NCBI GenBank assembly: GCA_963664225.1
Contig: OY760937.1
Coordinates: 5,440,001 to 5,504,000 of the forward strand
Length of the DNA stretch: 64,000 nt
Direction of reading: 5' to 3'
From: Verrucomicrobiia bacterium
GTDB lineage: Bacteria; Verrucomicrobiota; Verrucomicrobiia; Limisphaerales; UBA1319
The notes under the pieces were generated by a model that was given only the letters and a program-made list of their open reading frames with translations, was not told the DNA's origin and made no database searches. The stretch's first letter is position 1; every line of letters starts with the position of its first letter. The translations under genes and the position numbers were made by a program. Positions 1 through 46,966 of the stretch are shown here, one piece after another.

Positions 1-1308
1 GGGACGGCTGATTCCCAATTCCGTGGCCGCCTTGCTGATGTTGCCATTGTTCCGGCGCAGGGCTTGTTGGATCATGGTTAATTCCAATCCTTCCCGCGCT
101 TCCTTGAGGCTGCGGGCCATGCTGTTTTCCACAGAATCGGTTAATTCAAGATTGGCGGCTGTGACCCATTTTCCATCGGACATGATGACGGCGCGTTTGA
201 CGCGATTCTCAAGCTCCCTGACGTTTCCCGGCCAGTGGTAACATTGAAGAGCGCGCAGGGCGTCCTGGCTGAATTTTTGGTTTTCCTTCTTACTTTGCGC
301 GGCAAAGGCTTGCAGGAAGGTCTGCGCCAGAATGAGCACATCGTTCTTGCGTTCCCGCAACGGAGGTAATTTCAGGACGACGACCGCGAGCCTGTAATAG
401 AGATCCTCCCTGAATCTGGCTTCCTGCATGGCGCGTTTGAGGTCGGTATTGGTGGCGGCGATGACACGGGCATCCACGGGGATTTTTTCACGGCCACCGA
501 CGCGTTCGATGTATAGTTCCTGAAGGTAGCGCAGGATTTTGACCTGGAGATGGGAGGGCAGTTCGCCGATTTCATCCAGGAAGAGTGTGCCGCCCGAGGC
601 GGTTTCAATGCGTCCGCGACGTTGCACATGCGCGCCCGTGAAGGAGCCTTTTTCGTGTCCAAACAACTCGCTTTCCAGAAGGTTTTCCGGAATGGCCCCG
701 CAATTGATGGCTACAAACGGGCCGTCTTTGCGCGGGCTGGAACGGTGAATGGCCTGGGCCGCCATTTCCTTTCCGGTGCCGCTCTCTCCCAGGATCAGGA
801 CCGGCGCGTCTGTCGTGGCGACTTTGCGAATCTGGGCGAAAACCTCCTGCATCAGGGGGCCGGCGCCAAGCATCCCTTCAAAGGAGTCCGGTCCGAGCCG
901 CTGCTCCATTTCGTGGAAATCCTTTTCGAGACGGGCGACATGGATGGCCCGTTTAAGAATGACGGCCAGTTCGGTCATATCCACCGGTTTGCAAAGAAAA
1001 TCATAGGCCCCATGCCCGATGGCCTGGAGGGCGTTATCTTTTTCGGACTGGCCGGTGATCATGATGATTTTGGCGCGAGAATCCCGGGCGAGCAGATCGG
1101 CGAGGGTGTTGAATCCCTCCTTGCCGTCGGCGGGATTGGGAGGCAGGCCCAGGTCCAGCAGAACGACGATGGGGTGATGTTCCTGATATCTGGCCAGGGC
1201 GGAGGCGCGGTCTTCAGCGAGCGAAACATCGTAATTCTCAGCGAGGGCCCACTTCATTTGCGAGCGTATGTCTTCATCATCATCCACGATGAGCAGGTGC
1301 GGTTTCAT
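1..1308 (-). CDS. prsR: PEP-CTERM-box sigma-54-dependent response regulator (receiver + AAA+ + Fis HTH), 3' end truncated by window edge
   Basis: Absent from the ORF track because it runs off the edge. Manual translation from ATG 1308 gives MKPHLLIVDDDEDIRSQMKWAL, then GESGTGKE, GSFTGA, WPGNVRELEN and NISKAATELGISRP. Lies directly after prsK. Confidence 0.9.
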   Translation of the reverse strand, partial: MKPHLLIVDDDEDIRSQMKWALAENYDVSLAEDRASALARYQEHHPIVVLLDLGLPPNPADGKEGFNTLADLLARDSRAKIIMITGQSEKDNALQAIGHGAYDFLCKPVDMTELAVILKRAIHVARLEKDFHEMEQRLGPDSFEGMLGAGPLMQEVFAQIRKVATTDAPVLILGESGTGKEMAAQAIHRSSPRKDGPFVAINCGAIPENLLESELFGHEKGSFTGAHVQRRGRIETASGGTLFLDEIGELPSHLQVKILRYLQELYIERVGGREKIPVDARVIAATNTDLKRAMQEARFREDLYYRLAVVVLKLPPLRERKNDVLILAQTFLQAFAAQSKKENQKFSQDALRALQCYHWPGNVRELENRVKRAVIMSDGKWVTAANLELTDSVENSMARSLKEAREGLELTMIQQALRRNNGNISKAATELGISRP

Positions 1309-1309
1309 G

Positions 1310-3421
1310 TTAGTTGTGATGGAGTGGAAGCATTATTTTAAACGTGGTTCCCCGGTCTGGTTCGCTTTGCACCTCAATTTTTCCCTGATGCGCGTCGAGG
1401 ATCATTTTGCTATGGAACATGCCGATTCCAATTCCTTTTTTCTTGGTGGTTTGAAAAGGGCGAAAGAGCGAATTGCGCATGAACTCCGCGCTCATGCCGC
1501 AGCCGTTGTCGCTGACGGATACAATGGCCCATCCGTTCTGGCGCCCGGTTTCGACATGGATCTCTCCTCCTTTTCCCAAGGCGTCGCGGGCGTTAAGAAT
1601 CAGATTGGTAATCACGCTTTGAATCTGGCCGGGATCGATCATGACAGGCGGCGTTGGAGACAGGTTTTTAACGAGAGTGATTCCAGGCATTTCATGCAAA
1701 CCAGCCAGGGCGGCGTTTGCGATCAGGCCAAGGTCGGTTTCCACGGGGTGAAGCTTTAGTTCCTTGCGCAACAAACTCAGGCGCTCAATCAGCTCATTGA
1801 TATGGTTGACACTGCGACCGACCGCCCTTAGCGCGTCCGCCCGGAATTCGGGATCGTCAAAATGCAGCGGAAGGTTTTGGAGCATCAAGGAAAGAGTGGC
1901 GGCGGTGTTCTTGAGGTCATGGACAAAGAAAGCCGACATGGTCTGAAAGGCCTCCATCTCCCGGGCCTGCAGGAGACGGTGCGAAAGATGGATGTTTAAT
2001 AAATTACTGGCGATCTGGTCTCCCAGGCATTTGAGGAGATCGAGGTCTTCCGTCGAATAGGCAAGCCCGCCAACCCGGTCCCAGACGGTCATGATTCCAA
2101 GCAGTTGTCCCCCCGCCGAAAGGGCCGCGCACAGATGTCCACCGCCTTTGCCGTAAATATCCGGATTAATTTTATTCAACAGGGCATAACGCGCGTCATT
2201 TCCCTGGGCAATGTCGATTGGATGGGACTGCCTGGAAGCAGCCTGGAGAAGGGTGGCGACCTTCTCCAGAGGCAGGTGAAATTCCAGCGCGGCGGCTTCG
2301 GTGATCGAGGTTGACGCGCCGAAAACAAGGCGCTGATTCTGCGAATCGACGAGCCAAATTGTCACTGAGAGGGCATGGAATGTTTCGGAAACCAACTGCG
2401 TGGTGGTTCGACAGAGGGACGGGCTGTCCATGATGGTGGCGGTTCGTCCGGTGAAGGCGCGCCAAATCTGCCTGTAATCATAAATTGAGCGTTTAAAATG
2501 GCGGCTGACGAAGCGTTTGGTTTGTTGTTGGAAACGGTCGGAAAGGAGAAGCAGGCCGCAAAGAACGACCGCCAATAACATGATGAATGCCTCGATCGGG
2601 AATGATGCGCTGCCGCCCCAATGGGCGACTACTTTGGCGAAGACTCCAACGATCAGCAAATAAAGACCGGCAAAAATGACCGTCAACGACCGGTGCAGAA
2701 CGCTTAATGAGGGATACAGATCGAGCGTGATGGCTTGGGTGCGCAGGAGCGCCACGGTGATCAATCCCGAGGCGAGGACCACGGAGACGGCCTGCGCCGA
2801 TTTGATTGAGAGGCCATAGGAAGAAAACAAGACGACCTGACTGCTGACATAAAACCTAAAAATAAACAGCACTCCCAAGCCCAGCATCATGAATTTGATG
2901 CGCCAGCGCATGGTGCCGACAGCGGCCTGAAACGTGCGCTCCAGGTTCATGAGAATCAGGACCGAGGCGACCAGAAAAATGAAATGGAGGGCGACTCCCG
3001 TGGAACTTAGATTCAAATTCAATTCCCCCGAAGGCATTGTCCGCAGATCGCGAAACAAGGGGTGGAACGGCAGGGATAGAACGATGGCCAGGGGCAACGC
3101 GAAGGCCAGGATCAGCGGCAGTCTCCATTTTTTGATGAAATCAAGGTGGTTTCCCCGGGAATAACTCAAGCTGAACAGCAGCCACAATCCCGGTTGGAGG
3201 GCCATTGCGGTCAGATTTAACTTTTGCCACGAAAGGACTGTATCAGGAGAAAGGGCCATCAGGCTCATGGCATCGAAACACGATTCGGAAGCCAGCAGAA
3301 ACATGCCGCCGGCGAAAGTCAAATTGGCCAGGGAACGCATGCCAGGCCGGAGAGCTGCAACGGCCAGGGCAAGCGCGCAACAGGCTGCCGCCACGACAAG
3401 TATAACGGAAATGGCTGTCAT
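1310..3421 (-). CDS. prsK: PEP-CTERM system histidine kinase (multi-TM N-terminus, GAF-like, HisKA, HATPase)
   Basis: 703 aa with about 8 TM segments, AFFVHDLKN H-box, NLILNARDA, DNGCGM, LFRPFQTTKKKGIGIG. Paired with a sigma-54 response regulator next to EPS export genes. Confidence 0.9.
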   Translation of the reverse strand: MTAISVILVVAAACCALALAVAALRPGMRSLANLTFAGGMFLLASESCFDAMSLMALSPDTVLSWQKLNLTAMALQPGLWLLFSLSYSRGNHLDFIKKWRLPLILAFALPLAIVLSLPFHPLFRDLRTMPSGELNLNLSSTGVALHFIFLVASVLILMNLERTFQAAVGTMRWRIKFMMLGLGVLFIFRFYVSSQVVLFSSYGLSIKSAQAVSVVLASGLITVALLRTQAITLDLYPSLSVLHRSLTVIFAGLYLLIVGVFAKVVAHWGGSASFPIEAFIMLLAVVLCGLLLLSDRFQQQTKRFVSRHFKRSIYDYRQIWRAFTGRTATIMDSPSLCRTTTQLVSETFHALSVTIWLVDSQNQRLVFGASTSITEAAALEFHLPLEKVATLLQAASRQSHPIDIAQGNDARYALLNKINPDIYGKGGGHLCAALSAGGQLLGIMTVWDRVGGLAYSTEDLDLLKCLGDQIASNLLNIHLSHRLLQAREMEAFQTMSAFFVHDLKNTAATLSLMLQNLPLHFDDPEFRADALRAVGRSVNHINELIERLSLLRKELKLHPVETDLGLIANAALAGLHEMPGITLVKNLSPTPPVMIDPGQIQSVITNLILNARDALGKGGEIHVETGRQNGWAIVSVSDNGCGMSAEFMRNSLFRPFQTTKKKGIGIGMFHSKMILDAHQGKIEVQSEPDRGTTFKIMLPLHHN

Positions 3422-4637: not shown

Positions 4638-7637
4638 CTATTTGAGAAAAGGATCCGCAATCAAAGGCCCGATATTCGCGCCAGTCCAGGTGATGACAGC
4701 GCTCCGGGTAAAGTCTGAGATAACCGATTCGAGTAATTCCGAGGCCTTGGACCACGGCTGCCGATACACATATACGATGTCGCGGGGTTTGAGTTGGAAA
4801 TCGGGTTGTCTGGCATTGTAAATCTTGGAGGCGCTGACCACGAAGGTTTCCGGGTTCTTGAGCGAACCGCGGACAATCAATAGATTGCTCTTGTAGGCCC
4901 TTTCCGTAAAGCCACCGCGGGTAATGATCGCTTTCAGGGCGGTCATATCCGAGGAGTAGGGCGCCACACCGGGGGTTCGCACTTCTCCAAGGACATAGAC
5001 CTCCTGCAAATCCGCAGGAGGGAAGAACAGGTAATCGTCGGGGGCGATGGTTTGATTTTGATTCAAATCGCCCCTCAAAAACAAGGCTTCAAAGTCGATG
5101 TTGACCCTTTGAAACGCGCCATCCGGATTGCGGCGGATCATGAAGCTGCGGGAAAGGTCGGCCAATTGGACCGAGGTGCGTTGTTGGAGAACGCTAGTGA
5201 AGCCGCGGGCGCGGGCGATGGCTTCGACAATCGTTGTGGGGCGGTCGAGCGGAAACACGCCTTTCTGATTCACGTTGCCGAGGATGAAATATTTTTTGCT
5301 GTTGTAGGCGGTGGGTATGATGATGACCCGCACGGAACGATAGAATTTGGACAGGACTTTCTCGAGTTCCACACGCAATTCGTCCACGGTGAGACCCGCT
5401 GCCTGAACATCCTGCGCTTGTAGATAGGTCAGCCGCCCGTCGGGCCCGATAAAAACGCCCAGCTTGGCTGAGTCAGGTTGCTCATAGAGGGAAATGTTCA
5501 AGACATCCCCGGGACCGAGAGTGAGGTGTTTTTGCCAATCCGCCAATTTGTCGGGTCCGGCGGCTGAAAAAGAAATGGTGTTGGTGGGAGCTGTTTCGAC
5601 CGCTGCAACCGGTGCGTTATCCTGGGCGTGAATCCGCATTGGCGTCACCAGACACGCAAGGAGCATTGCGGCCATGCTGGCGGTCGCGCTGAAGCCTTTA
5701 CGCCAGGCAGGCGTTTTTGCATGGTTCAAAACACTACCCACCACGTTGCTGCGCGAAAGACGCAGGGTCTCCAGTTGGGCGCGGGTTTCATCGATGTTGG
5801 CCATATCTTGTCCACATAACCAGATCACCTGGGGCACTTTTTCGGCCAGGAGAACCGATTCGGCTCTGGACGCTGGCGGCAGCTCCACAAAGACGATCAG
5901 GTTTTCCGTTGCGTTCCATTGTTGAAGGGTCGTCCGCCATTGTTCACGACGCTCCAGATTCCATGCCCAGGCAGGCACAGGAATGCGAACCACGGATTTT
6001 TGAGTGGGAGTCATAAGAGCATTGTTGGCTTCAGAGGTGTTTTCCAGTGTGGCAATGGGGCTGTTTTCAACCGGCGCGGCCGGATCGGCATCGAAATCGG
6101 CGCCGTCGGATTGGGGGGCGGCGTCAACGGTGAGCACGCGGTAGCCTTGTTTTCGGGCCGCTTCGGCAAGGAGTTTGATCCAGGTGGAGCGGCCCTCTCC
6201 ATGCGATGAGGAAGTGAATCCGCATACGAGCGCTTCTTCAGTGGTTTTTTTCAAGGTCCCTTTCAGCATCGCAAGGGTTCTGAAGGCCCATTGTTCCCGG
6301 GCATCCTTATTCATTTCCCGCAAATCTCCCAAGGCCGCCAGCACGGGCAAAGGAATGGCCCGCATTAAATCGACTTTGGATCGTATCCGGCGGTCTTTCG
6401 TTTCGACCCAGAGGATCGACAGGATCGCCAAAAGCAGGCCAATCGCCGCCGCCAGCACACTTCCTATTATGGCAGGATTCAGTTTCTGAGACCAGTTTAA
6501 ATCTTCGATTTTGGCCGGTTCAAACAGCCTGTAATAACCCGAGATGGCGGTCTCGAGGAGCTGGATTTCCTGCTGGCGCGTGGAGAGTAAATCCCGATTG
6601 GCTATGAGGGATTGGTAGCGGGATTTTATTTTGGTGTATTCGAGACGCTTTTCGGGCAATCCAGCCAGTTCCTCGCGCAGTTGTTTGATTTCCGCGGTTG
6701 CTTTCTCAAGTTCCCGATTCAATCCGATTTTCTGGCTTCGAAGTTCCACCACGCGCATGTAAAGCGTCCCTGCCATGGTGTTGCTCCAATTCATGCTTCC
6801 AGAAGTGAATTGCGGACCCCGCTCGGCAATCTGACGCTGGATGGCTGTCACGGACGCCCGGAGTTCCTTGATCCTGGGGTGTTCCTCGGTGAACCGTAAA
6901 AGCGCGCTATCCAACGCCTCCTGCGCCGCGAGCAGGGCGGGGGATTGCCGCGTGATTTCCTGCATCAGGTTCGTGATTTGCAGGTCGGTGGTATCGATTT
7001 GAGAGCGGAGTTTATCTGTCTGCATCTCCAAATCGGCCCGATGTTGCAGTCGCGCGGGAGTCTCTTTTTCCAGGTCCACAAAACCAGTTTCTTTTTGATA
7101 CTGGGTCAGTTCCCGATCCGTTGCCGCGAGTTTGGAGTCCATGGCTGAAAGCCTTTGTTTGAGGGCAACGTTGAGGGACTGGACTTCGTTGGATTGAAGA
7201 TTCTGGGCGAGCCTGATCGCCTCGTTCGCGTAGGTGTTGGCCAGTTGGACGGTTTGATCGGGATTCTTTCCCTTCAGACTCAGGGCGATCAGCTCGGTAT
7301 TGGGGACTGCGGTGACCCGGGAGCACGCCTCGATTTCTTCGGGCGTGATCCGCATTCCCGCCTTCGCGGACACATCGCGCAGCAGTCCGGGCGACCTCAT
7401 CAGGTCAATGAGCGTGGGAACTGAGAACTCGCGTAATTTAAAGACTTCACCCTCGTAATTGTAGGTGGTAAAAGCCGGGGGAGCGTTGCGAACCAGTTTG
7501 ACGGTCGCAGTGTGATTGGCCAGGTCAAAACCAGCCACGAATCCGGCAAACGCGGCGAAGCCGGCGACAATAAGAAGCACATGCCATCGTTGCAGGAGGG
7601 CATCGACAAAACGTGCCAAATCCATGCGGTGTTTCAT
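4638..7637 (-). CDS. Fused polysaccharide co-polymerase (Wzc-like, degenerate kinase) + OPX/Wza-like Poly_export/SLBB protein
   Basis: 999 aa. TM1, coiled coil, TM2 followed by DRRIRS, Walker-A-like TSSSHGEGRST, VVGSVLN, a hydrophobic segment, then LGPGDVLNI..IGPDGRL and SLBB repeats. Confidence 0.85.
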   Translation of the reverse strand: MKHRMDLARFVDALLQRWHVLLIVAGFAAFAGFVAGFDLANHTATVKLVRNAPPAFTTYNYEGEVFKLREFSVPTLIDLMRSPGLLRDVSAKAGMRITPEEIEACSRVTAVPNTELIALSLKGKNPDQTVQLANTYANEAIRLAQNLQSNEVQSLNVALKQRLSAMDSKLAATDRELTQYQKETGFVDLEKETPARLQHRADLEMQTDKLRSQIDTTDLQITNLMQEITRQSPALLAAQEALDSALLRFTEEHPRIKELRASVTAIQRQIAERGPQFTSGSMNWSNTMAGTLYMRVVELRSQKIGLNRELEKATAEIKQLREELAGLPEKRLEYTKIKSRYQSLIANRDLLSTRQQEIQLLETAISGYYRLFEPAKIEDLNWSQKLNPAIIGSVLAAAIGLLLAILSILWVETKDRRIRSKVDLMRAIPLPVLAALGDLREMNKDAREQWAFRTLAMLKGTLKKTTEEALVCGFTSSSHGEGRSTWIKLLAEAARKQGYRVLTVDAAPQSDGADFDADPAAPVENSPIATLENTSEANNALMTPTQKSVVRIPVPAWAWNLERREQWRTTLQQWNATENLIVFVELPPASRAESVLLAEKVPQVIWLCGQDMANIDETRAQLETLRLSRSNVVGSVLNHAKTPAWRKGFSATASMAAMLLACLVTPMRIHAQDNAPVAAVETAPTNTISFSAAGPDKLADWQKHLTLGPGDVLNISLYEQPDSAKLGVFIGPDGRLTYLQAQDVQAAGLTVDELRVELEKVLSKFYRSVRVIIIPTAYNSKKYFILGNVNQKGVFPLDRPTTIVEAIARARGFTSVLQQRTSVQLADLSRSFMIRRNPDGAFQRVNIDFEALFLRGDLNQNQTIAPDDYLFFPPADLQEVYVLGEVRTPGVAPYSSDMTALKAIITRGGFTERAYKSNLLIVRGSLKNPETFVVSASKIYNARQPDFQLKPRDIVYVYRQPWSKASELLESVISDFTRSAVITWTGANIGPLIADPFLK

Positions 7638-7767
7638 CCGGTTGATGGAGTGCTTACGAGGTCATTCCCATGGTAATGCATTGAAACAGGCCCCTTCTGG
7701 TCGAGTTCCTTCTAATGGGATTTCTCGAATCCGATAACTCATTGCGATCGTTGGTGATGCAAATTAT

Positions 7768-7795
7768 ATTATATATCAATGCCACATCATTTCAA
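7768..7795 (-). promoter_or_regulatory. Possible sigma-70 promoter for the EPS/prsKR operon
   Basis: Minus strand TTGAAA-N16-TATAAT about 130 nt upstream of ATG 7637. The region is AT-rich, so a chance match is possible. Confidence 0.45.
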
Positions 7796-8036
7796 TCTGT
7801 CAATTTTGAAATCAAATATTATTGCGAATACATGCTATTTCGAGATACGCACCAGATGGTTGGGGAACGGCAAAGCCAAACAAAGGTTGATCACGGGCGC
7901 CTTTCCGTTGGAAACCGAGAGGCCGATAGAAATCGGCCCTTCGGTACATCCCCGCAGGCAGGTTAGAAAAAACAACTTCAACTGGAATAGCAAGTCAAGT
8001 AATATATCAAAGACCCAGTTGGCCGTAATCAACATT

Positions 8037-8052
8037 AGCAATATGTGTGCCA
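8037..8052 (-). promoter_or_regulatory. Sigma-54 (-24/-12) promoter
   Basis: Minus strand TGGCAC-ACATA-TTGCT matches the TGGCAC-N5-TTGCW consensus and points at the operon encoding a sigma-54 activator. Confidence 0.85.
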
Positions 8053-8151
8053 TTACCAAAAAAAACGGTTAATAATAACGCAACATGTTAATGATTAGGC
8101 ACAAGAAACACAACCATAACGGTGTTAAGAATGCTCATGACAATATTATAA

Positions 8152-8168
8152 TGTAAAAAAAACTTACA
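8152..8168. promoter_or_regulatory. Putative enhancer (UAS) box 1, candidate PrsR site
   Basis: TGTAA-aaaaaac-TTACA palindrome 100 bp upstream of the sigma-54 site. Confidence 0.65.
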
Positions 8169-8265
8169 TCAATAGATTGGCAGGATTTCCGAAATCGGCT
8201 AAAAATATTACGTAAATAACTGGTTATGAATAGGATGTGACTAATTGATTCAGGAGTGGGTAGTT

Positions 8266-8282
8266 TGTAAAACATCCTTACA
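8266..8282. promoter_or_regulatory. Putative enhancer (UAS) box 2, candidate PrsR site
   Basis: TGTAA-aacatcc-TTACA with the same spacing as box 1, followed by an extra TTTACA half-site. Confidence 0.65.
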
Positions 8283-8460
8283 CATTTACATTAACTGAAG
8301 TGCCCGTTTCATAATTGCGCGACCCCATTCTCATTGGAGTATTGCAACCATGATTTCTTCAAGGGATTCGTTCAAAATAACCAGTATTTACGGATTCCGT
8401 TTTCGATGGTAGTCTGAGTGCCGAATCCCAATATCAGCAAACACGCAATCGGCCAAACAT

Positions 8461-9429
8461 ATGAAGAGTCTTACGATGAATCGGCGTTCCTTTGTCTCGG
8501 CTGTGGCTGGACTGGGTGGCATGCTCGGACTGAGCGCCACCGATCTACCTGCCATTCAACAGCCTCAGGTGAAACGACGCATCAAGCTGGGAATCGCCAC
8601 CTATTCCTACTGGCATTTTCGAACGGACCGGGTTCCAATCGAGACTGTGATCGAGAAATCGGCCGATCTGGGAGTGGAGGGGGTGGATATTTTGCATCGG
8701 CAGATGGACATCCCGGAGAAAGCGCCGCTGGACGAAGCCGGACGGAGTTATTTGCGCAAGCTCAAGCGGCACGCTTTTCGGAACGGGGTTTCATTGGTTA
8801 ATTTTTCAATTCACCAGAACTTTGTTTCACCGGATGCATCAGTGCGCCAGGAGCACATCGATCACACCATCAAGTGCATTGAGATCGCGTATGAACTGGG
8901 GATACCGTGCATCCGTCTGAATTCAGGGCGGTGGAATACGATCAAGGATTTTGATGAATTGATGAAGAATCGGGGCGAGGAACCAATCATGGAAGGATAC
9001 AAGGAGGACGATGGTTTCAAGTGGTGCATTGAATGTACTGAGAAATGCCTGGCCAAGGCCGAACAATGCGGTGTGGTGCTTGCCTTGGAGAATCACTGGG
9101 GATTGTCGCGCACGCCTGCCGGGCAATTGCGCATTATCAACTCAATCAATTCGCCCTGGCTGGGGGCATTGATGGATACGGGTAATTTCCTGGAAAGCCC
9201 CTATGACAAGCTCGCGACTATCGCCCCCAAAACGGTCTATGTGCAGGCCAAAACCTATTACGGCGGCGGCGAATGGTACACGCTGGATCTGGATTACAAA
9301 CGCATTGCGCGCATTCTCGCCGATGCCAATTATACCGGTTTTGTCTCGCTTGAGTATGAGGGAAAAGAGGATCCGGACAAAGCAGTTCCCAAGAGTATCG
9401 CCCTATTGCGCAAGGCGTTTGGCGTGTGA
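8461..9429 (+). CDS. Tat-exported sugar phosphate isomerase/epimerase (xylose isomerase-like TIM barrel)
   Basis: NRRSFV twin-arginine signal; metal-binding motifs LALENHW, DTGNF, QAK and SLEYEG. Confidence 0.85.
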   Translation: MKSLTMNRRSFVSAVAGLGGMLGLSATDLPAIQQPQVKRRIKLGIATYSYWHFRTDRVPIETVIEKSADLGVEGVDILHRQMDIPEKAPLDEAGRSYLRKLKRHAFRNGVSLVNFSIHQNFVSPDASVRQEHIDHTIKCIEIAYELGIPCIRLNSGRWNTIKDFDELMKNRGEEPIMEGYKEDDGFKWCIECTEKCLAKAEQCGVVLALENHWGLSRTPAGQLRIINSINSPWLGALMDTGNFLESPYDKLATIAPKTVYVQAKTYYGGGEWYTLDLDYKRIARILADANYTGFVSLEYEGKEDPDKAVPKSIALLRKAFGV

Positions 9430-24917: not shown

Positions 24918-27900
24918 CTACAGTTTGGAACCGCCCAGGATTTGCCGCGCTTCCGTGGCGAAGGAGGCGTTTGGATCGATGGCCAGGGCTTTCCGCAAGG
25001 ATTCAGCGCTTTCCTTTTTCTGCTTGAGCTGGTTCTGAGCCAGCCCGAGGTTGAAAAAGACTTCGGCATCGTTGGTGCGCTTGCGGGCGCTATCCTGGAG
25101 CAGCCTTGCGGCATAACCATAGTCACCGTGGCGATAAGCGATGATTCCAATGGCCTTGGCCACCTCGGGATCGTCTGGATAGGCATCGCGAATGCGACCG
25201 GCCAGTTCAAAACCTTTTCCTGTATCGGCCGGGTTTTGAGCATAAATGAGAATGAGGCTGCGGGCCGCAGGGGTGAAGAGGGGGAATTTTGACGTTATGC
25301 GCTCGTAAATGGACCGAGCGACTGCGGCTTGTCCCTGGGCATCGGCGATGACGGCCGACGCCATGAGGGCAGGAAGATCGTCGGGACTGGCTTTGAGAAC
25401 ATCCTGCACCCAGGCTGAATATTGGGCAGCCTCGGCGGGATGAGCGACCACATTCAACGCGGAGAGGAATTGTTTGGCCCCGTCGAGATGGCCGGAAGCG
25501 GCGCCGGATTGGGCCACGGCCTGCATGAGAGCCAGCGCATCGGCTACGCGTCCCAGATGGTAAGTGGCCAGCGCCAGATAGTAGTTGATCCCGGGATTAT
25601 TGGGACGCTGACGGGCGCTTTCAGAAAGCAGGCTGAAGGCCCATTTGGCATCGCCGGTTTCATAAGCCAAAATGCCAAGGGCGAGTGTGATCTCCTGATT
25701 ATTGGGATCGATATTGCGGGCATTTTTGGCCAGTTCCATCGCCCTGGCCGGATTATTCAAATGATCGGCGTAAAGGTGGGCCAGACGAATCATCGGCGCA
25801 GCGTCTTTGGGGTTTTCCTGAATTGCGGCTTCGTACGTCGATTGGGCGCTGGAATTGTTGGTGTTCCGTTCGTAAAGTTGACCCAATTGAAGAGAGGCGG
25901 CGACCGCCTTTGGGTTTAGTTTAATAATGCGTCGATATGCGTCCTCAGCCTTGTCCATGGCCCCTTTTCTCTCGTAGGCCAGGCCGATCTGGATGAGGTT
26001 GGTCACGGCATTTGGTTTCGTGGCCAGCATCTTTTCATAAGCGGCTTGCGATTTGTCCAAGGCTCCGGAACGTTCGTAGAGGTCGGCAAGCCTGGTCAGA
26101 ACGATGGGATCGGAGCGTTGCCCGGCGTATCGTTTCTCGAGTTCCGCAATGGCTTGATCCACGTTTTGCGCAGGATCGAATGTCAGCAATGCCAGGCGTT
26201 GGCGGGTCTCTTCCCGACCGGGAAACTCCCGATTTTCCTTGAGGGCACGCTCGAAAGCGGTGCGGGCGGGGATTTCTTCTCCCATCATATAATGAGCCAT
26301 TCCGTTGTGGTATTGGACTTCCGGCTCGTTGACCAGCCTGGGCGCGCTTTCGTCCAGCAGTGCAGCGGCCTGCACATAGTCGCCTTTCTTAAACAGAATC
26401 CATCCCAAAGTATCCGCTGTGTAAGGGTCCGTGGGAAGCAATGCGCGGGCCCTGGCGGCCAGCGAGAGTGCTTTTTCGGGTTGAGTGAATTTTTCGGAAT
26501 ACAAATAGGCAAGGTTGTTAAGGGCAGGGGTGAAACCGGGATTGATGTTCAGGATGGTTTCATACATGTCCCGTGCCTGGTCGGGGTGTGCCATGGTTTC
26601 GTGAATCATGGCGATTTGCAGCATGGCCGAGAGATCGTTGGTCCTGCGGGCCAGGATGATTTGAAGCTTTTCGAGGGCCAGTTGCGGTTTGTGCTGCGAA
26701 ATGAACAACTGCGAGAGGGCCATGTAAGCCGGGCGATAATTGGGCTGGTTGTCGATGATCTTCAGCAACAGGGCTTCGGCTTGTGCGTTCGCGCCCTGGG
26801 CCAACTGGATTTGCGCCAGCAGGAACTGAGGCTCCGGCGCGGCGGGATTGGCGGCGATTTCCTTTTGCACCCTTTGGCTGGCTGCGGCATGTTGCTTATC
26901 CTGGATGTCCAATTCCACCAGTTTTTCGAGCGTGCGAATGTAGTGGGGATCGCGCGCGAGGCTCGATTCATATTGCTGGCGCGCTTCGGCGAATTTGCCC
27001 GATTTTTGCAGGGCGATTCCCGCCAGAAATCCCGGTTCAGGATTTTTTGGGAACGCGGCAGCCATTTGACGGAAGAGAGCTAAAACGTCATCGCTTGCGC
27101 CGCGCATGTTATAGGCGTCTGCGAGCAAGAGGTAGGCGCGAGGGATCTGATCGTTTTTCTTGAGCAGGGCGCGCAATGAGGCAATGGCGGATGCGGAATC
27201 CCCTCGTTCCATGGCAATTTGAGCCATTAGGATGGTTACATCGGCGTAGTTTGGATCCAGGTTCAAGGCCTGGGTCAGGCTGGTTTGGGCCCTTGCGCGG
27301 TCATTGTTTCGGCGGTATGCCGCCGCGAGTTCAAACCGCACTTGGGGAGTTTGCGGATAAAGGGCGGCCATTTTTTCAAATTCCTCGATGGCTCTGGCCG
27401 GTTCGTTTTGGGCGGTTTTCAGGCGTCCCTTCAACAGCATGGCATCATAATTCATTCCGTCGCGAGTGAGGATCTTTTGCAGCAACGCGGCGCAGGAATC
27501 ATAATGGCGCTCCACAAACGAAATTTCCGCCAGGAAATTCATGGCGGGAAGATAATCCGGGGCTTTGTCGGTGATTTCCCGTAGAATTCTTTTGGCCTCG
27601 TCAATATACCCGGTGCGCAATTTAAATTCAGCGTATTTGAGGCGTCTGGCGGATTTGAGGGGTGAGAGGTCCGCCGCGGTTTTGAATGAACGGTCCGCGT
27701 TGGTGAGATCCTCGCGCATCCAGTATAAGTTGCCCAAGGCCGCATGCACGGCTGCGTTTTTTGGCTCCATTGCCAGAGCCTGGTTAAATGACGCCTCGGC
27801 GGATTTTACGTCCTGCTGCCGGAGGCTCAGGTTGCCCATGGCCAGGAGGAAGGCGGCCTGTTTGCCAGCCTGCGGAGCCAGCTTAAGCAGGCTTTGGCGT

Positions 27901-28343
27901 GTCTCTTCCAATTCTTTTGGAGTGACTGCGGCATCGACCAGCATGAGGATGGCTTCCTGATTGGCGGGCTCTTTGGATAATACAAAGGATGCATCCTCCC
28001 GGGCTTCCTTGAATTTGCGCGCGGCAAAATAGACAAGCCCCCGGCGGAGACGGGCTTCGACGTTATTTGTGTTTTGCCTGAGCAGTTCGCCGTAGAAGGC
28101 GAAGGCACGGGGCATGTCGCCGCGTTCGAAGTAAATCCGGCCCAGTTGTCGAACCGCCAATGGATCCGCTCCCGCAAGCTGGATCACGGATAAATACTCG
28201 ATTTCCGCCTTGTCCAATTCATTGACTTGAAAATATTTGTCTGCGTTTCGAAGATGGCGCTCCTTTTTGGCTGATTTGGAACAGCCCATCCCTGATGACA
28301 ACAAGCCAACGATTAATAGGAAGGTGAACAGTCGGGATCCCAT
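24918..28343 (-). CDS. Large TPR-repeat lipoprotein, PrsT-like (PEP-CTERM/EPS-associated)
   Basis: Signal peptide ending GMGC; many TPRs; ALNNLAYLY...ADTLGWIL module typical of the PrsT C-terminus. Confidence 0.82.
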   Translation of the reverse strand: MGSRLFTFLLIVGLLSSGMGCSKSAKKERHLRNADKYFQVNELDKAEIEYLSVIQLAGADPLAVRQLGRIYFERGDMPRAFAFYGELLRQNTNNVEARLRRGLVYFAARKFKEAREDASFVLSKEPANQEAILMLVDAAVTPKELEETRQSLLKLAPQAGKQAAFLLAMGNLSLRQQDVKSAEASFNQALAMEPKNAAVHAALGNLYWMREDLTNADRSFKTAADLSPLKSARRLKYAEFKLRTGYIDEAKRILREITDKAPDYLPAMNFLAEISFVERHYDSCAALLQKILTRDGMNYDAMLLKGRLKTAQNEPARAIEEFEKMAALYPQTPQVRFELAAAYRRNNDRARAQTSLTQALNLDPNYADVTILMAQIAMERGDSASAIASLRALLKKNDQIPRAYLLLADAYNMRGASDDVLALFRQMAAAFPKNPEPGFLAGIALQKSGKFAEARQQYESSLARDPHYIRTLEKLVELDIQDKQHAAASQRVQKEIAANPAAPEPQFLLAQIQLAQGANAQAEALLLKIIDNQPNYRPAYMALSQLFISQHKPQLALEKLQIILARRTNDLSAMLQIAMIHETMAHPDQARDMYETILNINPGFTPALNNLAYLYSEKFTQPEKALSLAARARALLPTDPYTADTLGWILFKKGDYVQAAALLDESAPRLVNEPEVQYHNGMAHYMMGEEIPARTAFERALKENREFPGREETRQRLALLTFDPAQNVDQAIAELEKRYAGQRSDPIVLTRLADLYERSGALDKSQAAYEKMLATKPNAVTNLIQIGLAYERKGAMDKAEDAYRRIIKLNPKAVAASLQLGQLYERNTNNSSAQSTYEAAIQENPKDAAPMIRLAHLYADHLNNPARAMELAKNARNIDPNNQEITLALGILAYETGDAKWAFSLLSESARQRPNNPGINYYLALATYHLGRVADALALMQAVAQSGAASGHLDGAKQFLSALNVVAHPAEAAQYSAWVQDVLKASPDDLPALMASAVIADAQGQAAVARSIYERITSKFPLFTPAARSLILIYAQNPADTGKGFELAGRIRDAYPDDPEVAKAIGIIAYRHGDYGYAARLLQDSARKRTNDAEVFFNLGLAQNQLKQKKESAESLRKALAIDPNASFATEARQILGGSKL

Positions 28344-28578: not shown

Positions 28579-30276
28579 TCAGCGTTTTTCTTTTCCAATC
28601 AGATCCCCGAAGTCCGGCAGCAAATCGTATTTTTTCAACCAGGGCGTGTACATGAATCCGCGCACTCCGGGAATGTCTTTGGACTGTTCCAGCCAACCCT
28701 TTACGTCGTTCAGGTTGTCCGCGTCGTAGTAGCAGGCGGCCAGCGTGGAGAAGCCCTGTTCGGCAAAGAATTTGAGGCTCTTGGGACGCGGTTCACCGCT
28801 CCATACCGCCATCACCAGGTCTTTTGGGATATGGTTCCATGAACCGGTGAAATCGCCGGACACCAGGTAGTAATTTCGGTGGGCGTTATGGCCGGGATCG
28901 AACATGTCCGACCAGACATAAATTTGAGCGCCCGGGAAATGGCGCTTGAGGATTTCGCACTGTCGAGTCAAACATTGCCCCAAGAGTTCTCCCATATTTT
29001 TGCCCGCGCAGACCTGACAGGTTCCGCCCATGCGGATTTCGTCCATATTCAGTAGGAAACGGTGTGGCTTGAGATGTTTTGCCATGAGCGCGGCCTCGTG
29101 GTCGAATATTTCAAAAAGCTCAGGTTCGGCCATGCATACGGTGATCTGGCCGTCGTAAATAATTTCTGGATGATACCAGCTTATTTTCAGGTTTTGATTG
29201 TTGGTAATGCGGCTTCCCGACGGTATCTGGAGCGAGGCAGGTTCGTGGTTGGGGCGATAGAGGCTGAAATTCCGATCTTTCAATGGCGCATAATCCTTAC
29301 CCACGGTGTAAGTGACCGTGCCGTCTTCATTGCGCACGGTAACGGGCGTGCCCGGGCGGTTGAGGACATTGACAGGTCCAACCTCTTCAAGAGACCAATC
29401 GTCCAGCCAGAGTCGGCCAGATTTCGCGCCCCAGACGCCCGCATAGAGATTGGCCCGGTCAAATTCGAGGGTGTTAAAAACGGTCGTTATCTCGCGCCAT
29501 GCGGTCGTGGCGGGAAGATTGAAGCTGCGCGGCGCGATTTCCCGGTCCTTTGCCAGGAGGGTCATCTGGAAGGCGTTGGCAGGGGTCAACCCGTCCGTTT
29601 TCACCCAAAGGCGCAATCGATAACAACGATGCGGGATTAATTTGATTTCCTGCATCACCCGGCCGTGGCCGTGGGGGTTGGCGGTGAAATTTTCGAGCCG
29701 CAACGAGGCGCTGCCGCCATGGACGGTTTGGGTGTCGATAAAGCTCACCGTGCCGGGTTGATCGTGAAAATTGAAGCTTTTGAGACTTTGTGCTGTGTAA
29801 GATTCAAAGCCGCCATTGGCGATTTTAATCGATTCAGCAGGTTGAAAGAGCGCCACGCCATTGGAGACGACGAATGGGGCGTTCTCGACGGCCAACCCTT
29901 CTGCCAGGTGTGGATTATGGGCCAGGGCCCCACCGCCATAACCGACGGAGAACAGGCTGGGAATAAGTTCCAAGTGGTTCTGATCGCATGCTTTTTGAAG
30001 GGCCTCCAACCGTGTGAAATATTCCGGCGACTTTTTGCACAATGTGTCCATGTCCGCCGAAAGCACCGCGCCATTAAGGCCATGGGCTGCAGCAGTTTTG
30101 ATAAGGTTGGTCATGGATGCGAGATCGGCATCGCCATCCAGACTCCAGCCAAACACCCAGACAAAGCGGTCGGCGTAGGGTCGGCTTGTATTCAGTGTTT
30201 GGGCTTCCAGCGTGAATCCGGCCAATAAAAGAAAAGCAAGAGGAGACGCAAGCCGGGTCAGGAATGGTGTCTTCAT
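28579..30276 (-). CDS. Secreted putative glycoside hydrolase (GH20-like TIM barrel) with inserted CBM4/9-like domain
   Basis: Signal peptide ending LEA-Q; ELIP, C..EPE, NMDEIR, VWSDMF and GFMYTPW motifs; insert runs from IANGGFE to LWLDDWSL. Confidence 0.65.
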   Translation of the reverse strand: MKTPFLTRLASPLAFLLLAGFTLEAQTLNTSRPYADRFVWVFGWSLDGDADLASMTNLIKTAAAHGLNGAVLSADMDTLCKKSPEYFTRLEALQKACDQNHLELIPSLFSVGYGGGALAHNPHLAEGLAVENAPFVVSNGVALFQPAESIKIANGGFESYTAQSLKSFNFHDQPGTVSFIDTQTVHGGSASLRLENFTANPHGHGRVMQEIKLIPHRCYRLRLWVKTDGLTPANAFQMTLLAKDREIAPRSFNLPATTAWREITTVFNTLEFDRANLYAGVWGAKSGRLWLDDWSLEEVGPVNVLNRPGTPVTVRNEDGTVTYTVGKDYAPLKDRNFSLYRPNHEPASLQIPSGSRITNNQNLKISWYHPEIIYDGQITVCMAEPELFEIFDHEAALMAKHLKPHRFLLNMDEIRMGGTCQVCAGKNMGELLGQCLTRQCEILKRHFPGAQIYVWSDMFDPGHNAHRNYYLVSGDFTGSWNHIPKDLVMAVWSGEPRPKSLKFFAEQGFSTLAACYYDADNLNDVKGWLEQSKDIPGVRGFMYTPWLKKYDLLPDFGDLIGKEKR

Positions 30277-42423: not shown

Positions 42424-44376
42424 TCACCAATCCTTGAATCCTGCAGACTTGGGCTTTTGTTGAGGAACAAAATTCATCGCTTTCTCCCCTTCTTTCTGGG
42501 AATCCAAAAGCTGGCGCGCTTGCTGGGGCGTCATTTTTCCATCAGGTTTCGGGCTTTGGGCTTGGGCGGTCTGGTTGGTCGGGGCTGTTTGATCCGGTTG
42601 CGCTGACTTTTGCTCGGCGTTTTCTTTTTTTTCCGAATTCTGCTTCTGGTCCTTTGCGGCTTGTTCGTCTTTTTTGGAATTTTGCTCCTGAGATTGTTTT
42701 TTGTCTGAATCTTGCTGGGATTTCTGGTCTTTGTCAGGCTGTGGCTGCTTTTGGTCCTGTTTTTTGGAATCGGACGGTTTTTGATCTTTGGAATCGTCTT
42801 TTTTGTTCTGGTCTTTGTTTTCTTTATTCTGGTCTGGAGACTGTTGTGGAGGTTGTTTTTTTAATTCCTCCAGCGCCTTTTTGACGAATTCCGAGTTGTT
42901 TTTCGCATCTTTATCCTTTGGATTTAATTTCAGAGCGGACTCGTAATTCTTCATCGCTTGTTCCCAAGCCCCCATTTTTTCTTTAGCCTCCGGCGCTTTC
43001 TCGCCGAGGCGATAATAGGCATTGCCCAGGTTGTAATAGGCATTTTCCTGAAGAGAGAGGTTCTGTGATAAGGTCGCCTGCTCGAGCTCGGACACGGCGC
43101 GTTCATATTCCCTGGCCTGATAGGCGGCGGTTCCTGCGTTGAATGGCAATCGCTCGTCCTTGGGATTGTTTTTCTGAAGCCGCTCGTATTCCTTGAGGGC
43201 CTCGGGATAGTTTCCCTTGTTATAGAGATCCAAGGCCTTATCTGAGGAAGCCGTTGTCGTGGTTGCGCTCAAGATGAAGGCCAGCGCACCCGCAATGGTA
43301 GCGCTTTGCGAGACTTTGGCGCCTAAAGTCGATTTGGACCGACGCTTGATCCGTAGTCGGACCGGCAGGAATATCTCGACAATCAACAATGCGATAGCAG
43401 CACCGAGGGGCCACTGGAAACGCTCCTGGTAATGTTTAAGAATGCGCGGCGGACGTTTTTCAGTTGTTGGAATGCCACCGACTCTGATTTGGCCCAATAG
43501 CGGAGCCAAACCACGCTCGTAAAGCACGTCCATCGTGTTTGCGCCCCTCAAGGGAAGATAAAAACCGTGTGTTCCTTTGGCCACGTTCTGAAGTAAAGCC
43601 TCGTTTAAATGGGATTTGACCATGTTCCCTTCCTCGTCCTTAACGAACGGTCCGCTGTCCTTTTCGTCCTTGATGGGGATCAGCTCACCTTGGGAAGTTC
43701 CCACTCCGATTGTGAAAATGCGAACACCCGCTTTTTCCGCGGCCTCCACTGCGCCAGTGACTCCTTCCTCGTGATCTTCGCCGTCGGTGATCAAAATAAT
43801 CGCTTTTTCGTTGTTCTCATCCTCTTTGAAAGCTTTGAGGGCGATGCGAATGGCTTCGGCAATGGACGTGCCTCCCTGCGGAATGAAACCGACATCGATG
43901 AGATTCAGACTCTGACGATAGGCCTCATCATCCACAGTGAGCGGGCATTGCAGAAAGGCCGTTCCAGCAAAGGCGACCAGACCGAGACGATCTGTCTTTG
44001 CCAGAGGCATCAATTCGAGAGCAGCCAATTTGGCGCGTGCCATTCGATTAGGAGCAACGTCCTGTGTGGACATGCTGCGCGAAGTGTCCAAGGCGACTAC
44101 AATATCCAGCCCGCTCTGTTTGAGTTCCTCCAGTGTAAATCCCCATTGTGGACGTGCGAGCGCAAGCATGAGGAACGCAACGCTCGCAAGGATCAGAATC
44201 ATCCGCAGTTTTTGAATGGCTGGCTTAAGGCCGACGGTCAGGTTGGCCAGCAATCGCGAGCGAACAAACAAGCCCATGTCTCTCTGCCGCTTGCGCCAGG
44301 CAAAGAACATAAAGACAGACAGCAATCCAACCACCGCAAGCAGGATGAGGAGCATGGGAGGGTTTCCAAATTTCAT
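42424..44376 (-). CDS. BatB-like VWA domain fused to BatC-like TPR region and Q/K/D-rich tail
   Basis: LARPQWG, DTSRSM (MIDAS), P.R...AK, TDGEDH, YNLGNAYY TPRs, low-complexity tail ending KDW; ATGA overlap with batA. Confidence 0.88.
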   Translation of the reverse strand: MKFGNPPMLLILLAVVGLLSVFMFFAWRKRQRDMGLFVRSRLLANLTVGLKPAIQKLRMILILASVAFLMLALARPQWGFTLEELKQSGLDIVVALDTSRSMSTQDVAPNRMARAKLAALELMPLAKTDRLGLVAFAGTAFLQCPLTVDDEAYRQSLNLIDVGFIPQGGTSIAEAIRIALKAFKEDENNEKAIILITDGEDHEEGVTGAVEAAEKAGVRIFTIGVGTSQGELIPIKDEKDSGPFVKDEEGNMVKSHLNEALLQNVAKGTHGFYLPLRGANTMDVLYERGLAPLLGQIRVGGIPTTEKRPPRILKHYQERFQWPLGAAIALLIVEIFLPVRLRIKRRSKSTLGAKVSQSATIAGALAFILSATTTTASSDKALDLYNKGNYPEALKEYERLQKNNPKDERLPFNAGTAAYQAREYERAVSELEQATLSQNLSLQENAYYNLGNAYYRLGEKAPEAKEKMGAWEQAMKNYESALKLNPKDKDAKNNSEFVKKALEELKKQPPQQSPDQNKENKDQNKKDDSKDQKPSDSKKQDQKQPQPDKDQKSQQDSDKKQSQEQNSKKDEQAAKDQKQNSEKKENAEQKSAQPDQTAPTNQTAQAQSPKPDGKMTPQQARQLLDSQKEGEKAMNFVPQQKPKSAGFKDW

Positions 44377-45368
44377 GGCAGTTTCCTCCAAACGGTATGG
44401 CCTAGAATAATTTCCAGGAGCAGCAGGAACAAGCCTGGTACGACCGCATAATCGAAGACGTCGTTGTAACGCTGGAATTTTTTGACTGTGGCCTCGGTTT
44501 TTTCCAGACGATCAATTTCCGCATAAACGCGGCGCAGGGTGTCCGAACTATCCGCGCGGTAATATTTTCCCCCTGTCTTTTCCGCGATCTGTTTAAGAGT
44601 GTCCTCGTCGATATCCACCTTTATTTGCACGTAAACCTTGCGCCCGAACATGTCGGTTTGGGGGTAGGGGGCGACGCCGCGGGTGCCAACGCCGATGGTA
44701 TAAACCTTCACCCCCAAAGCTTGGGCGGCTTCGGCAGCGGTCAAGGGGGGCACCTGTCCGGCGTTGTTTTGGCCATCAGTCATCAGAATTATGATTTTGC
44801 TTTTCGAGGGGATGTCCTTGAGGCGGTTAAGAGAGGCTGTAAGCGCCGCGCCTATCGCTGTTCGATCCTCAATAGTGCCAATGTCCAGGCGCTCGAGGTT
44901 GTTTAAAAAGAAATCATGATCCAGCGTCAGCGGCGCTGCAATGTAAGCCCGTCCGGCGAAGGCGACCAGACCAATGCGGTCGTTTTCACGTTTGAGGACG
45001 AACTTTTGTAGAACTTCTTTTGCTACTTCGAGGCGGTTTGCACGCTGCCCCTGCAGTTCAAAGTCCTCAGAAGCCATGCTGCTGGACAAATCCAAAGCAA
45101 CCACAATGTCGATGCCGCTTGCGGTGATTTTTGCATGGCCTTCACCCAATTGGGGGCGGGCAAAACCAATAATGAACAAGGCCAGAGCGAGCCAACGCAT
45201 TCGGGGCAGGATGGCTCCGGCCTTCGAACGTGTGATGCCCGTGATACCTTTAACCAATTGAACCGAAGAATAAAGAAAAGCGGATTCGCGACCGTAACGC
45301 CCCCGCAGCCAGGCTAAAAACAGCAAGGTTGGCAATAAAAGTAAAAACCAGGGATGGGCGAAGGTCAT
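44373..45368 (-). CDS. batA: BatA-like VWA domain membrane protein
   Basis: FAHPW, ARPQ, DLSSSM, DRIGLVAF, TAIG.A, TDGQNNAG and IA..TGG.YYRA motifs. Confidence 0.9.
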   Translation of the reverse strand: MTFAHPWFLLLLPTLLFLAWLRGRYGRESAFLYSSVQLVKGITGITRSKAGAILPRMRWLALALFIIGFARPQLGEGHAKITASGIDIVVALDLSSSMASEDFELQGQRANRLEVAKEVLQKFVLKRENDRIGLVAFAGRAYIAAPLTLDHDFFLNNLERLDIGTIEDRTAIGAALTASLNRLKDIPSKSKIIILMTDGQNNAGQVPPLTAAEAAQALGVKVYTIGVGTRGVAPYPQTDMFGRKVYVQIKVDIDEDTLKQIAEKTGGKYYRADSSDTLRRVYAEIDRLEKTEATVKKFQRYNDVFDYAVVPGLFLLLLEIILGHTVWRKLP

Positions 45369-45958
45369 GCGATGACGGGGGGGTCCGAGTTTTTCGCGAG
45401 TTCCGCCTGGGCATCGGACTGTGGGTGCGGGCAGGTTTCATCTACCAGTCGGAGGGCCGCATCGTAAAGAGCCTGCAACTCGTTTTGGCCTGGCTCGTAG
45501 CGTGCGAATTTCACCATGTCACACTGGCGCAGAAAGTCGGCGAGCAGCGTTTTGTGAGGGCCGGAGAGTTTGTGACTGGACTGCAACTCAGAAAGGAACT
45601 CTTCTGTGGTACGCTCCGGGGCTCTCAAATCAAAGCGTTCCTCAAGATAGACTCGCGCGGCATCGCTGACGAAGATCGTGAACGGTTTGGGTTGCCCCAT
45701 GAGCGCTAATGCTTGCTGGAGTTTCTCCCGGGCGCGCACTTCGGGGGGAATCGGCGCCTCTGGTGCTTCCAACACTTTGTTGCGCCTGCGTTTCCACCAC
45801 CACCAGGCTGCAGCACCGAGTATCAGCAGCAGCAACAACACCCATAACCAACCCCATCCTGAAGGAATGAAGACCGGTGGGCGAATGGGTTGGATATCCA
45901 TTGTCGCCGCTGGAACGGCAGGGGCTGCCTTAACGATATATCGCCGTTGCAATTTCAT
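45365..45958 (-). CDS. Bat-cluster single-TM protein (DUF4381-like)
   Basis: DI.PI, one TM, R.YLE.RF...A.E.TT.E and D.VKFA motifs; overlaps both neighbours by 4 nt. Confidence 0.82.
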   Translation of the reverse strand: MKLQRRYIVKAAPAVPAATMDIQPIRPPVFIPSGWGWLWVLLLLLILGAAAWWWWKRRRNKVLEAPEAPIPPEVRAREKLQQALALMGQPKPFTIFVSDAARVYLEERFDLRAPERTTEEFLSELQSSHKLSGPHKTLLADFLRQCDMVKFARYEPGQNELQALYDAALRLVDETCPHPQSDAQAELAKNSDPPVIA

Positions 45959-46911: not shown

Positions 46912-46966
46912 GGTGTGTTTTTATCCGGACAGGTACAAGTGGCCTGTAACCATTACCTTGTATGCA

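Follow-up and report, generated by a model that had tools for sequence, protein, structure and literature searches.

A single gene in the stretch of Verrucomicrobiia DNA analysed here encodes, in one polypeptide, two parts of a Wzx/Wzy-type polysaccharide export machine, which meet at an internal segment made up like a secretory signal sequence. The stretch (hereafter the window) comprised 64,000 nucleotides of contig OY760937.1 (GenBank assembly GCA_963664225.1, forward-strand positions 5,440,001 to 5,504,000), and the gene, P0001, was open over 999 codons on the minus strand (4638..7637). P0001 is a genuine conserved gene, joining an inner-membrane polysaccharide co-polymerase (PCP) to an outer-membrane polysaccharide export (OPX) part, here called OPX1. 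Judging from the comparisons below, the internal segment would export OPX1 and be cleaved by signal peptidase I (SPI), a reading to which we assign a probability of roughly 60%, the data leaning towards cleavage.

The preliminary description of the window had read this open reading frame (ORF) as a Wzc-type protein, with two transmembrane (TM) helices and a kinase-like domain, joined to Wza-type Poly_export and SLBB domains at a junction running from WRKGF to RIHA/QD. The ORF, Pfam and structure prediction bore out this internal-junction fusion, and the two junction motifs were located at residues 645-649 (WRKGF, nt 5705-5691) and 668-673 (RIHAQD, nt 5636-5619). Three hydropathy peaks were present, at residues of approximately 19-32, 394-406 and 657-660. 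The AlphaFold2 (AF2) model, with a mean predicted local distance difference test score (pLDDT) of 78.9, placed TM1, a long periplasmic helix bundle (helices 126-184, 193-229, 288-325 and 329-363), TM2, an alpha/beta cytoplasmic domain and a helix at residues 644-664 in succession, followed by disorder at 665-687 (pLDDT <50) and a confident OPX fold ending with helix 963-985. The PCP-2a hallmark of two TM helices around a large helical periplasmic domain was present according to hydropathy, the AF2 model and the matches to Wzc and PslE. In the second part, Pfam assigned Poly_export to residues 704-772 (50.9 bits, cut-off 28) and SLBB to two stretches up to residue 957 (66.6 bits, cut-off 27); in the first part, a sub-threshold P-loop match covered residues 478-641. 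Wza_C was absent from the Pfam matches, though the AF2 model draws a C-terminal helix. A family profile compared with solved structures matched Wza (expectation value E 1e-35), PslE (7e-28), Wzc (2e-15) and the CapB kinase (3e-8), and a Foldseek search with the P0001 model matched Wzc (E 2e-20) and Wza (2e-19). The best NCBIfam models for the two halves, TIGR03007 (score 46, curated cut-off 278.85) and TIGR03027 (111.6, curated cut-off 180), did not reach their cut-offs.

The label Wzc did not hold for the PCP half, which is not a true Wzc and lies closer to PslE-type pseudokinase PCPs; the label Wza held for OPX1 as regards Poly_export and SLBB and failed as regards the conserved Wza lipobox, which is missing. 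Aligned with CapB, the cytoplasmic domain showed altered Walker motifs: GEGRST vs. GAGKST in Walker A (K to R), VDAAP vs. IDGDMR in Walker A' (with loss of DxD) and VELPP vs. VDTPP in Walker B (D to E). The substituting arginine, R483, was invariant in a 56-sequence alignment (A1), and GEGKST was still present in 4 of 25 further typed relatives. No tyrosine cluster was present after the conserved VLN motif, where the P0001 chain continues into the signal-like segment. Foldseek matched the domain to CapAB, Wzc and Etk (E 4e-8 to 5e-7). From its sequence and fold, the domain is probably a pseudokinase with a bacterial tyrosine kinase (BY-kinase) fold, and probably a scaffold rather than a kinase. 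PslE is described, in passages of PMC13434223, as having no active site, no tyrosine cluster and no kinase activity, and the BY pseudokinases EcpK and HfsB were proposed as scaffolds for a PCP (PMC12004946, in part).

The fusion was widespread. A word-indexed protein search returned 58 proteins, 56 of which were aligned (A1), the distant PCP kinases P0059 and P0060 being left out. The motifs marking the PCP end and the OPX start lay on one chain in 51 of the 56 homologs, whose identity to the query ranged from 83% down to 32% and whose public names pointed to Verrucomicrobiota; three homologs at 81-83% identity, from other assemblies, were also fused. At the DNA level, the best 80 of 100 relatives were taken from a one-genome-per-species scan with 115 pattern matches. 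The junction lay within a single ORF in 62 of these 80 loci (56 complete; 6 shorter or cut by a contig end), and the remainder consisted of 13 split loci and 5 others (3 contig ends, 1 run of N and 1 PCP without an OPX after it). An exhaustive HMMER search over 1.84 billion representatives gave 16,069 matches at E ≤1e-3 and 511 at E ≤1e-30; among the best 150 matches, which are 50% clustering representatives, at least 69 of the 144 new proteins were fusions with the same junction. Public annotation named the fusion proteins only as "polysaccharide biosynthesis/export family protein". Because the same junction was found inside one ORF in so many loci and homologs, the fusion is more than a chance event; on these sequence comparisons, it is common to many Verrucomicrobiota relatives and is not an assembly artefact. 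The preliminary description had asked whether homologs conserve the fusion and the hydrophobic junction: both were conserved, and its refuting condition, homologs that are always two genes with a stop lost in this assembly alone, did not hold.

Some relatives were unusual. L057 (= P0055, 784-806 aa) carried a fused gene that stops just past Poly_export (query residues 5-773), with an OPX2-like gene next; it is possibly a decaying copy. P0151 (1819 aa) and P0179 (2040 aa) gave 17 and 18 separate matches to the query OPX part, and appear to be tandem Poly_export/SLBB arrays. The genes of eleven loci (L008, L011, L016, L036, L038, L040, L021, L054, L053, L067 and L044) nested among Verrucomicrobiota under the labels Bifidobacterium/Bifidobacteriaceae, Saccharimonadales, Methylomirabilota, Limnocylindrales, Baltobacteraceae or Haliangiales; they are probably mislabelled or mis-binned contigs of metagenome-assembled genomes.

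The 13 split loci bear directly on the nature of the junction. Their PCP ends right after the conserved VLN motif, for example with VLNHEPKPVFEL and the stop codon, and in 11 of them this stop overlaps the OPX1 start as ATGA. Neither L027 nor L080 had the overlap; each had an in-frame stop (at L027:7909 and L080:7933, TAA and TGA) with an ATG 6 or 2 codons on. OPX1 of the split loci opens with an ordinary N-terminal signal peptide, for example MKKRLMLSVAVASLVLIPTKHGRA/AEGE or MNTRLIPRAVVTGLILLVAAAPAPA/QPE, and this peptide occupies the position homologous to the internal segment of the fused proteins. The segment is thus at the N-terminus only in the 13 split loci and at residue 645 of 999 in P0001, and the split PCPs do without it altogether. 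Because the signal peptides of split OPX1 proteins lie at the same position, the internal segment is a homolog of a working secretion signal. The export role that the preliminary description had proposed for the junction gained support from this comparison; between the tethered and the cleaved product, which it had offered as alternatives, the data lean towards the latter.

Junction segments were compared with TM1 and TM2 from their own proteins, as well as with the N-termini of 17 stand-alone OPX1 proteins, TM1 having the same N-in/C-out orientation as the junction. The polar-free hydrophobic run had a median of 16 residues at the junction (interquartile range 14-17) and 15 in stand-alone OPX1, vs. 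19.5 in TM1 and 23 in TM2. Runs of at least 19 residues occurred in 10 of 100 junctions, 57 of 100 TM1 and 81 of 100 TM2 segments, and the best 19-mer reached a hydropathy of 1.6 in 28, 74 and 97 of 100, respectively. A strict cleavage site was defined by A/V/S/T/I/L/G/C at -3, A/G/S at -1 and Q/E/D at +1, no more than 14 residues past the hydrophobic core. Such a site was present at 86 of 104 junctions and in 12 of 17 stand-alone OPX1 proteins, vs. 7 of 100 after TM1. The 86 strict sites had Ala at -1 in 74 cases and Gln at +1 in 75, with varying flanks; of the 18 junctions lacking such a site, most read A-x-A/A-E. A less redundant representative set gave a strict site in 52 of 69 junctions, a median run of again 16 and a median net charge before the run of +3 (at least +2 in 57 of 69). 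By rules of our own making, the junction had the make-up of a Sec/SPI signal, with a basic n-region, a short h-region and small residues at -3 and -1. The linker following it measured 15-233 residues in fused relatives and 21-47 in stand-alone OPX1. In its sequence features, the junction segment resembles stand-alone OPX1 signal peptides and differs from TM1 and TM2. The Gln at +1 could, speculatively, cyclise to pyroglutamate after cleavage, which would be relevant only with a free N-terminus.

The next gene downstream of P0001, P0002, encodes a paralogous lipoprotein, OPX2. An OPX2-like gene was next in 65 of the 80 loci, most others ending at a contig edge. Cys20 was invariant in 48 aligned OPX2 orthologs, and a lipobox pattern was present in 54 of 63 OPX2 candidates. 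As predicted from these sequences, the loci pair a lipidated OPX2 with a non-lipidated OPX1 carrying an SPI-type signal. When OPX1 (672-999) was modelled in complex with OPX2 (20-376), the score was 0.63, compared to 0.00 for the best of 3 controls; 116 of 157 solved complexes attained this mark, as did 2 of 215 mismatched pairs. The model runs shared at least 32% of contacts, with a partner pLDDT of at least 70. The modelled contacts run from Poly_export to Poly_export and from SLBB to SLBB, which we read as side-by-side packing like that of neighbours in the Wza ring.

Several points weigh against export and cleavage as proposed here. The signal and cleavage motif rules were home-made for this analysis, and a relaxed -3/-1 rule, while fitting all 104 junctions, also fitted 76 of 100 TM1 segments, so that only the strict rule discriminates. 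The 28 junctions above the hydropathy threshold would pass as TM helices by that simple measure, and the helix drawn by AF2 at the junction is 21 residues long. To our knowledge, cleavage at an internal signal peptide is rare among natural bacterial proteins. The export of OPX1, its cleavage and its assembly with OPX2 are steps that we infer, and the OPX1-OPX2 model may have passed only by resembling the solved homo-octamers of Wza, to which both chains are homologous.

The AF2 helix, the junctions reaching the classical hydropathy threshold and the 10 of 100 with runs of at least 19 residues also speak for the foremost alternative, which we consider rather unlikely: that the segment stays in place as an uncleaved third TM anchor, the exported OPX part being tethered to the inner membrane through the linker in a permanent single chain. 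The long linkers of some fused members (up to 116 and 233 residues) would suit such a tether. A mere anchor, however, needs no cleavage site, and the A-x-A/Q-type site was far more frequent at junctions than after TM1; the hydrophobic run is short, and the split PCPs lack the segment. Fused linkers go down to 15-16 residues and overlap the stand-alone range. In the solved PslD-PslE complex, the OPX protein docks on the PCP tip approximately 120-156 Å above the inner membrane (PMC13434223, in part), a distance that a linker of 15-29 residues could hardly span if the geometry of that other system applied here.

An improbable alternative is that P0001 and its three closest relatives carry a lipoprotein signal, cut by signal peptidase II before C661, so that OPX1 would be lipidated as Wza is. 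Lipoproteins are the usual form of OPX proteins, the adjacent OPX2 is one, and LLAC or LIAC occupies residues 658-661 in P0001 and P0004-P0006. No conserved lipobox Cys was found at the OPX1 junction, though: the LLAC motif and the Cys at 661 are limited to these four sequences, further hydrophobic residues (LVTPM) come after the Cys, ahead of the usual IHA/Q site of the family, and Cys is common elsewhere in these hydrophobic runs (WLGC motif).

Still less probable is separate translation of the OPX part from an internal start, which would make the fusion nominal. Possible starts exist, namely in-frame ATGs at 5675 and 5666 and a TTG at 5729, the latter giving a product beginning MNHAKTPAWRKGF, with a plausible signal peptide. 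The three homologs at 81-83% identity nevertheless have I, I or L in place of M655, encoded by the ATG at 5675, and translation from this codon would leave out the basic region. No start codon had a fixed position near the junction in 58 fused genes (57 loci and the window): between the VLN motif and the hydrophobic core, any start codon was present in 39 of 58 and an ATG in 15 of 58. The TTG encodes the conserved Leu of VLN (L637), occurs in 18 of the 58 fused genes and recurs in several split loci whose OPX1 starts at an ATG of its own; in the 62 fused loci, the two frames run on with no stop between them. Independent translation from ATG 5675, named in the preliminary description as one of two outcomes that would overturn its reading, found no backing. 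An out-of-frame ATG at approximately 5722 (MQKR...), considered as a relic start, was rejected by eye, since it opens a 25-aa non-hydrophobic peptide. That the fusion reflects faulty assembly or sequencing, or a recent pseudogene-like read-through from one gene into the next, is hardly credible: split forms exist and many differ from fused ones by a one-base frame relation (the ATGA overlap), but the fusion recurs in 62 independent loci of the 80, across identities of 32%-83%, and the junction pattern itself is conserved.

The history of the joint was followed in trees of the PCP part. In a FastTree phylogeny of 121 rows, including the 2 distant PCP kinases as outgroup, fused rows were basal, the main split group (11 rows, support 100) was nested among them, and at least 5 changes between the fused and split states were needed. 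A quick IQ-TREE phylogeny of 62 rows, selected to represent the clades (all 10 split loci with full PCP, 50 fused and 2 outgroups; the other 59 FastTree rows omitted), gave the same picture with 3 changes. Approximately unbiased (AU) tests rejected both a single clade of all split rows (p 0.006) and a bipartition with every fused row on the same side (p 0.001), and because both single-change groupings were rejected, the state must have changed more than once. Repeated change fits a module that works either way. The fused form is likely ancestral, with several fissions, the direction resting on a distant outgroup and parsimony.

The following sequence of events is proposed for P0001. The first two thirds would form a PslE-like co-polymerase with TM1, a helical periplasmic domain, TM2 and an altered tyrosine-kinase fold. 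Where such PCPs normally end, residues 645-671 would act as a Sec-type signal sequence, with basic residues, a short core and IHA/Q. OPX domains act in the periplasm and, given this site and the positive-inside rule, the segment would insert N-in/C-out during membrane insertion and carry the last third to the periplasm. Three features suggest that SPI most likely cuts after A671: the A-x-A/Q site is conserved, the hydrophobic run is short, and the linkers are no longer than those of stand-alone OPX1. This cut would free a soluble, non-lipidated OPX1 beside its co-translated co-polymerase in a 1:1 ratio, and OPX1 would then probably assemble with its lipoprotein paralog OPX2.

More tentatively, and at somewhat less than even odds, the whole could be a natural envelope-export polyprotein, in which SPI cuts at the internal signal, a soluble OPX is supplied in cis at 1:1, a two-component periplasmic/outer-membrane channel is formed with the lipid-anchored paralog, and fission recurs at the joint. 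Repeated fission at that exact joint would be understandable, the second half being a complete secretory precursor as it stands. No published description of a natural PCP-OPX fusion was found, subscription journals and supplements lying outside the search. The "fused" and "fusion" passages of PMC12819527, PMC9603273, PMC9601211 and PMC7310880 mention none, and in those of PMC4971617 "fusion" is used for membrane-fusion proteins only. The component families are known; the novelty lies in their union on one chain with an internal secretion signal, in the spread of this design in Verrucomicrobiota and in its pairing with a lipidated paralog.

The way in which the inner-membrane co-polymerase and the OPX channel meet, and their ratio, are under active study; structures of the Wza-Wzc and PslD-PslE complexes reportedly first appeared in 2026. 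A large natural family hard-wiring both in one chain amounts to an evolutionary statement for 1:1 action and local assembly. The family, which combines a pseudokinase with two OPX paralogs and lacks a phosphorylation cycle, also offers a simple system for cis-assembly. If cleaved, it would be a widespread case of processing at an internal signal peptide, for which very few bacterial proteins are known. For annotation, it serves as a warning that signal-peptide predictors scanning only N-termini will miss an internal segment.

The coordinates of the features are given in Table 1. Downstream of OPX2 lie genes for the XrtA/PEP-CTERM regulators PrsK and PrsR, the latter running off the window; of 50 related loci long enough to include PrsK, only 1 showed this adjacency. 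A PrsT gene is located 17 kb away from the operon. Its neighbour, a 565-aa ORF, had no Pfam or NCBIfam match and resembles carbohydrate-binding-domain proteins (ESM Atlas) and not a barrel. No porin partner was found within the window. The AT-rich gap at 7638-8460 (GC approximately 0.42, vs. approximately 0.55 elsewhere) contained a sigma-54-like site approximately 400 nt upstream of the fusion gene; matches with at most one mismatch numbered 6, which is not above chance. The operon of the fusion gene ends with the sigma-54 activator PrsR. Rfam gave no match at E ≤1 in the 5' region 7500-8500. When 671 ORFs from the 80 loci were clustered, no conserved neighbours beyond OPX2 emerged; the families obtained (regulators, glycosyltransferases, an AAA_22 ATPase and a sigma-70 factor) were small, none extending to more than 12 loci. 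Elsewhere in the window, 52816-62286 (+) contained a 3156-aa ORF with six Lamin-tail, CotH kinase, CBM, PA14 and many Ig-like domains; 42424-47956 (-) a row of MoxR AAA ATPase, DUF58, DUF4381, BatA-VWA and VWA-TPR genes of the Bat/aerotolerance operon type; and 48185-51950 (+) a row of LuxE-like acyl-protein synthetase, MFS transporter and LuxC-like acyl-CoA reductase genes.

Table 1. Features of the fusion gene, its product and the surrounding locus, in window coordinates.
Feature	Position	Strand	Basis
PCP-OPX fusion gene P0001, 999 aa	4638..7637	-	ORF, Pfam, NCBIfam, profile, Foldseek
TM1, residues 20-37, N-in/C-out	7527..7580	-	Hydropathy; AF2 helix 18-39
Periplasmic co-polymerase (PCP) domain, residues 38-388	6474..7526	-	AF2; PslE and Wzc matches
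TM2, residues 389-411	6405..6473	-	Hydropathy and AF2
Cytoplasmic BY-kinase-like domain, residues 412-644	5706..6404	-	CapB alignment, Foldseek
Walker A-like GEGRST, residues 480-485	6183..6200	-	Sequence, alignment to CapB
Signal-peptide-like internal segment, residues 645-671 (WRK, hydrophobic run, IHA)	5625..5705	-	Sequence; AF2 helix 644-664
Predicted signal peptidase I site, A671/Q672	5622..5627	-	Inferred from conserved -3/-1/+1 pattern
Low-complexity linker, residues 672-700	5538..5624	-	pLDDT <50 at 665-687 (AF2)
OPX part (OPX1), residues 701-999	4641..5537	-	Pfam, AF2, profile, Foldseek
OPX2 gene P0002, 376 aa, lipoprotein, lipobox LFAG-C20	3504..4634	-	Sequence, Pfam
PrsK, XrtA/PEP-CTERM histidine kinase	1310..3421	-	TIGR02916, 384.2 bits vs. 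cut-off 300
PrsR, PEP-CTERM-box sigma-54 response regulator, runs off window	1..1308	-	TIGR02915, 596.9 bits vs. cut-off 502.6
PrsT, XrtA/PEP-CTERM TPR lipoprotein (listed with 565-aa ORF)	24918-28343, 28579-30276	-	372.7 bits vs. cut-off 312.2
Sigma-54 -24/-12-like TGGCAC-N5-TTGC	8038..8052	-	Only exact match in window

Among known systems, the closest parallel for the proposed processing may be FbcH, the cytochrome b/c1 precursor of Bradyrhizobium japonicum, reportedly one membrane polypeptide split at an internal signal peptide, for which our literature searches were without success. FbcH belongs to an unrelated family and reportedly yields two subunits of one complex by experimentally demonstrated cleavage, whereas the cleavage of P0001 is a prediction. 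The XrtA/PEP-CTERM systems share with P0001 the best NCBIfam names for both halves (chain-length determinant and export protein), PrsK/PrsR directly downstream and a PrsT in the window; both halves, however, score far below the curated cut-offs, and PrsK adjacency was seen in only the single related locus counted above. With E. coli Wzc-Wza, a PCP-2a tyrosine autokinase and a Class-1 OPX, fold and domain order agree, whereas P0001 has altered Walker motifs, no C-terminal tyrosine cluster, no Pfam Wza_C and a fused chain.

EcpK and HfsB likewise have a tyrosine-kinase fold without consensus Walker motifs or tyrosine tail; EcpK stands alone with all motifs gone, whereas the P0001 domain is part of the PCP chain and its substituted motifs are recognisable (PMC12004946, in part). 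The nearest likeness is to the PslE-PslD pair, as far as it is described in passages of PMC13434223. PslE is a two-TM PCP with a long helical periplasmic domain and a kinase-like domain without active site or tyrosine tail, PslD is an OPX protein with a PES/Poly_export domain and no Wza-type C-terminal helix, and their complex is about 1:1, as 8:8. In Pseudomonas aeruginosa, PslE and PslD are encoded by separate genes and PslD is a lipoprotein, whereas P0001 carries PCP and OPX1 in one ORF, joined by a signal-like segment without a conserved lipobox, with a lipidated OPX2 encoded next to it.

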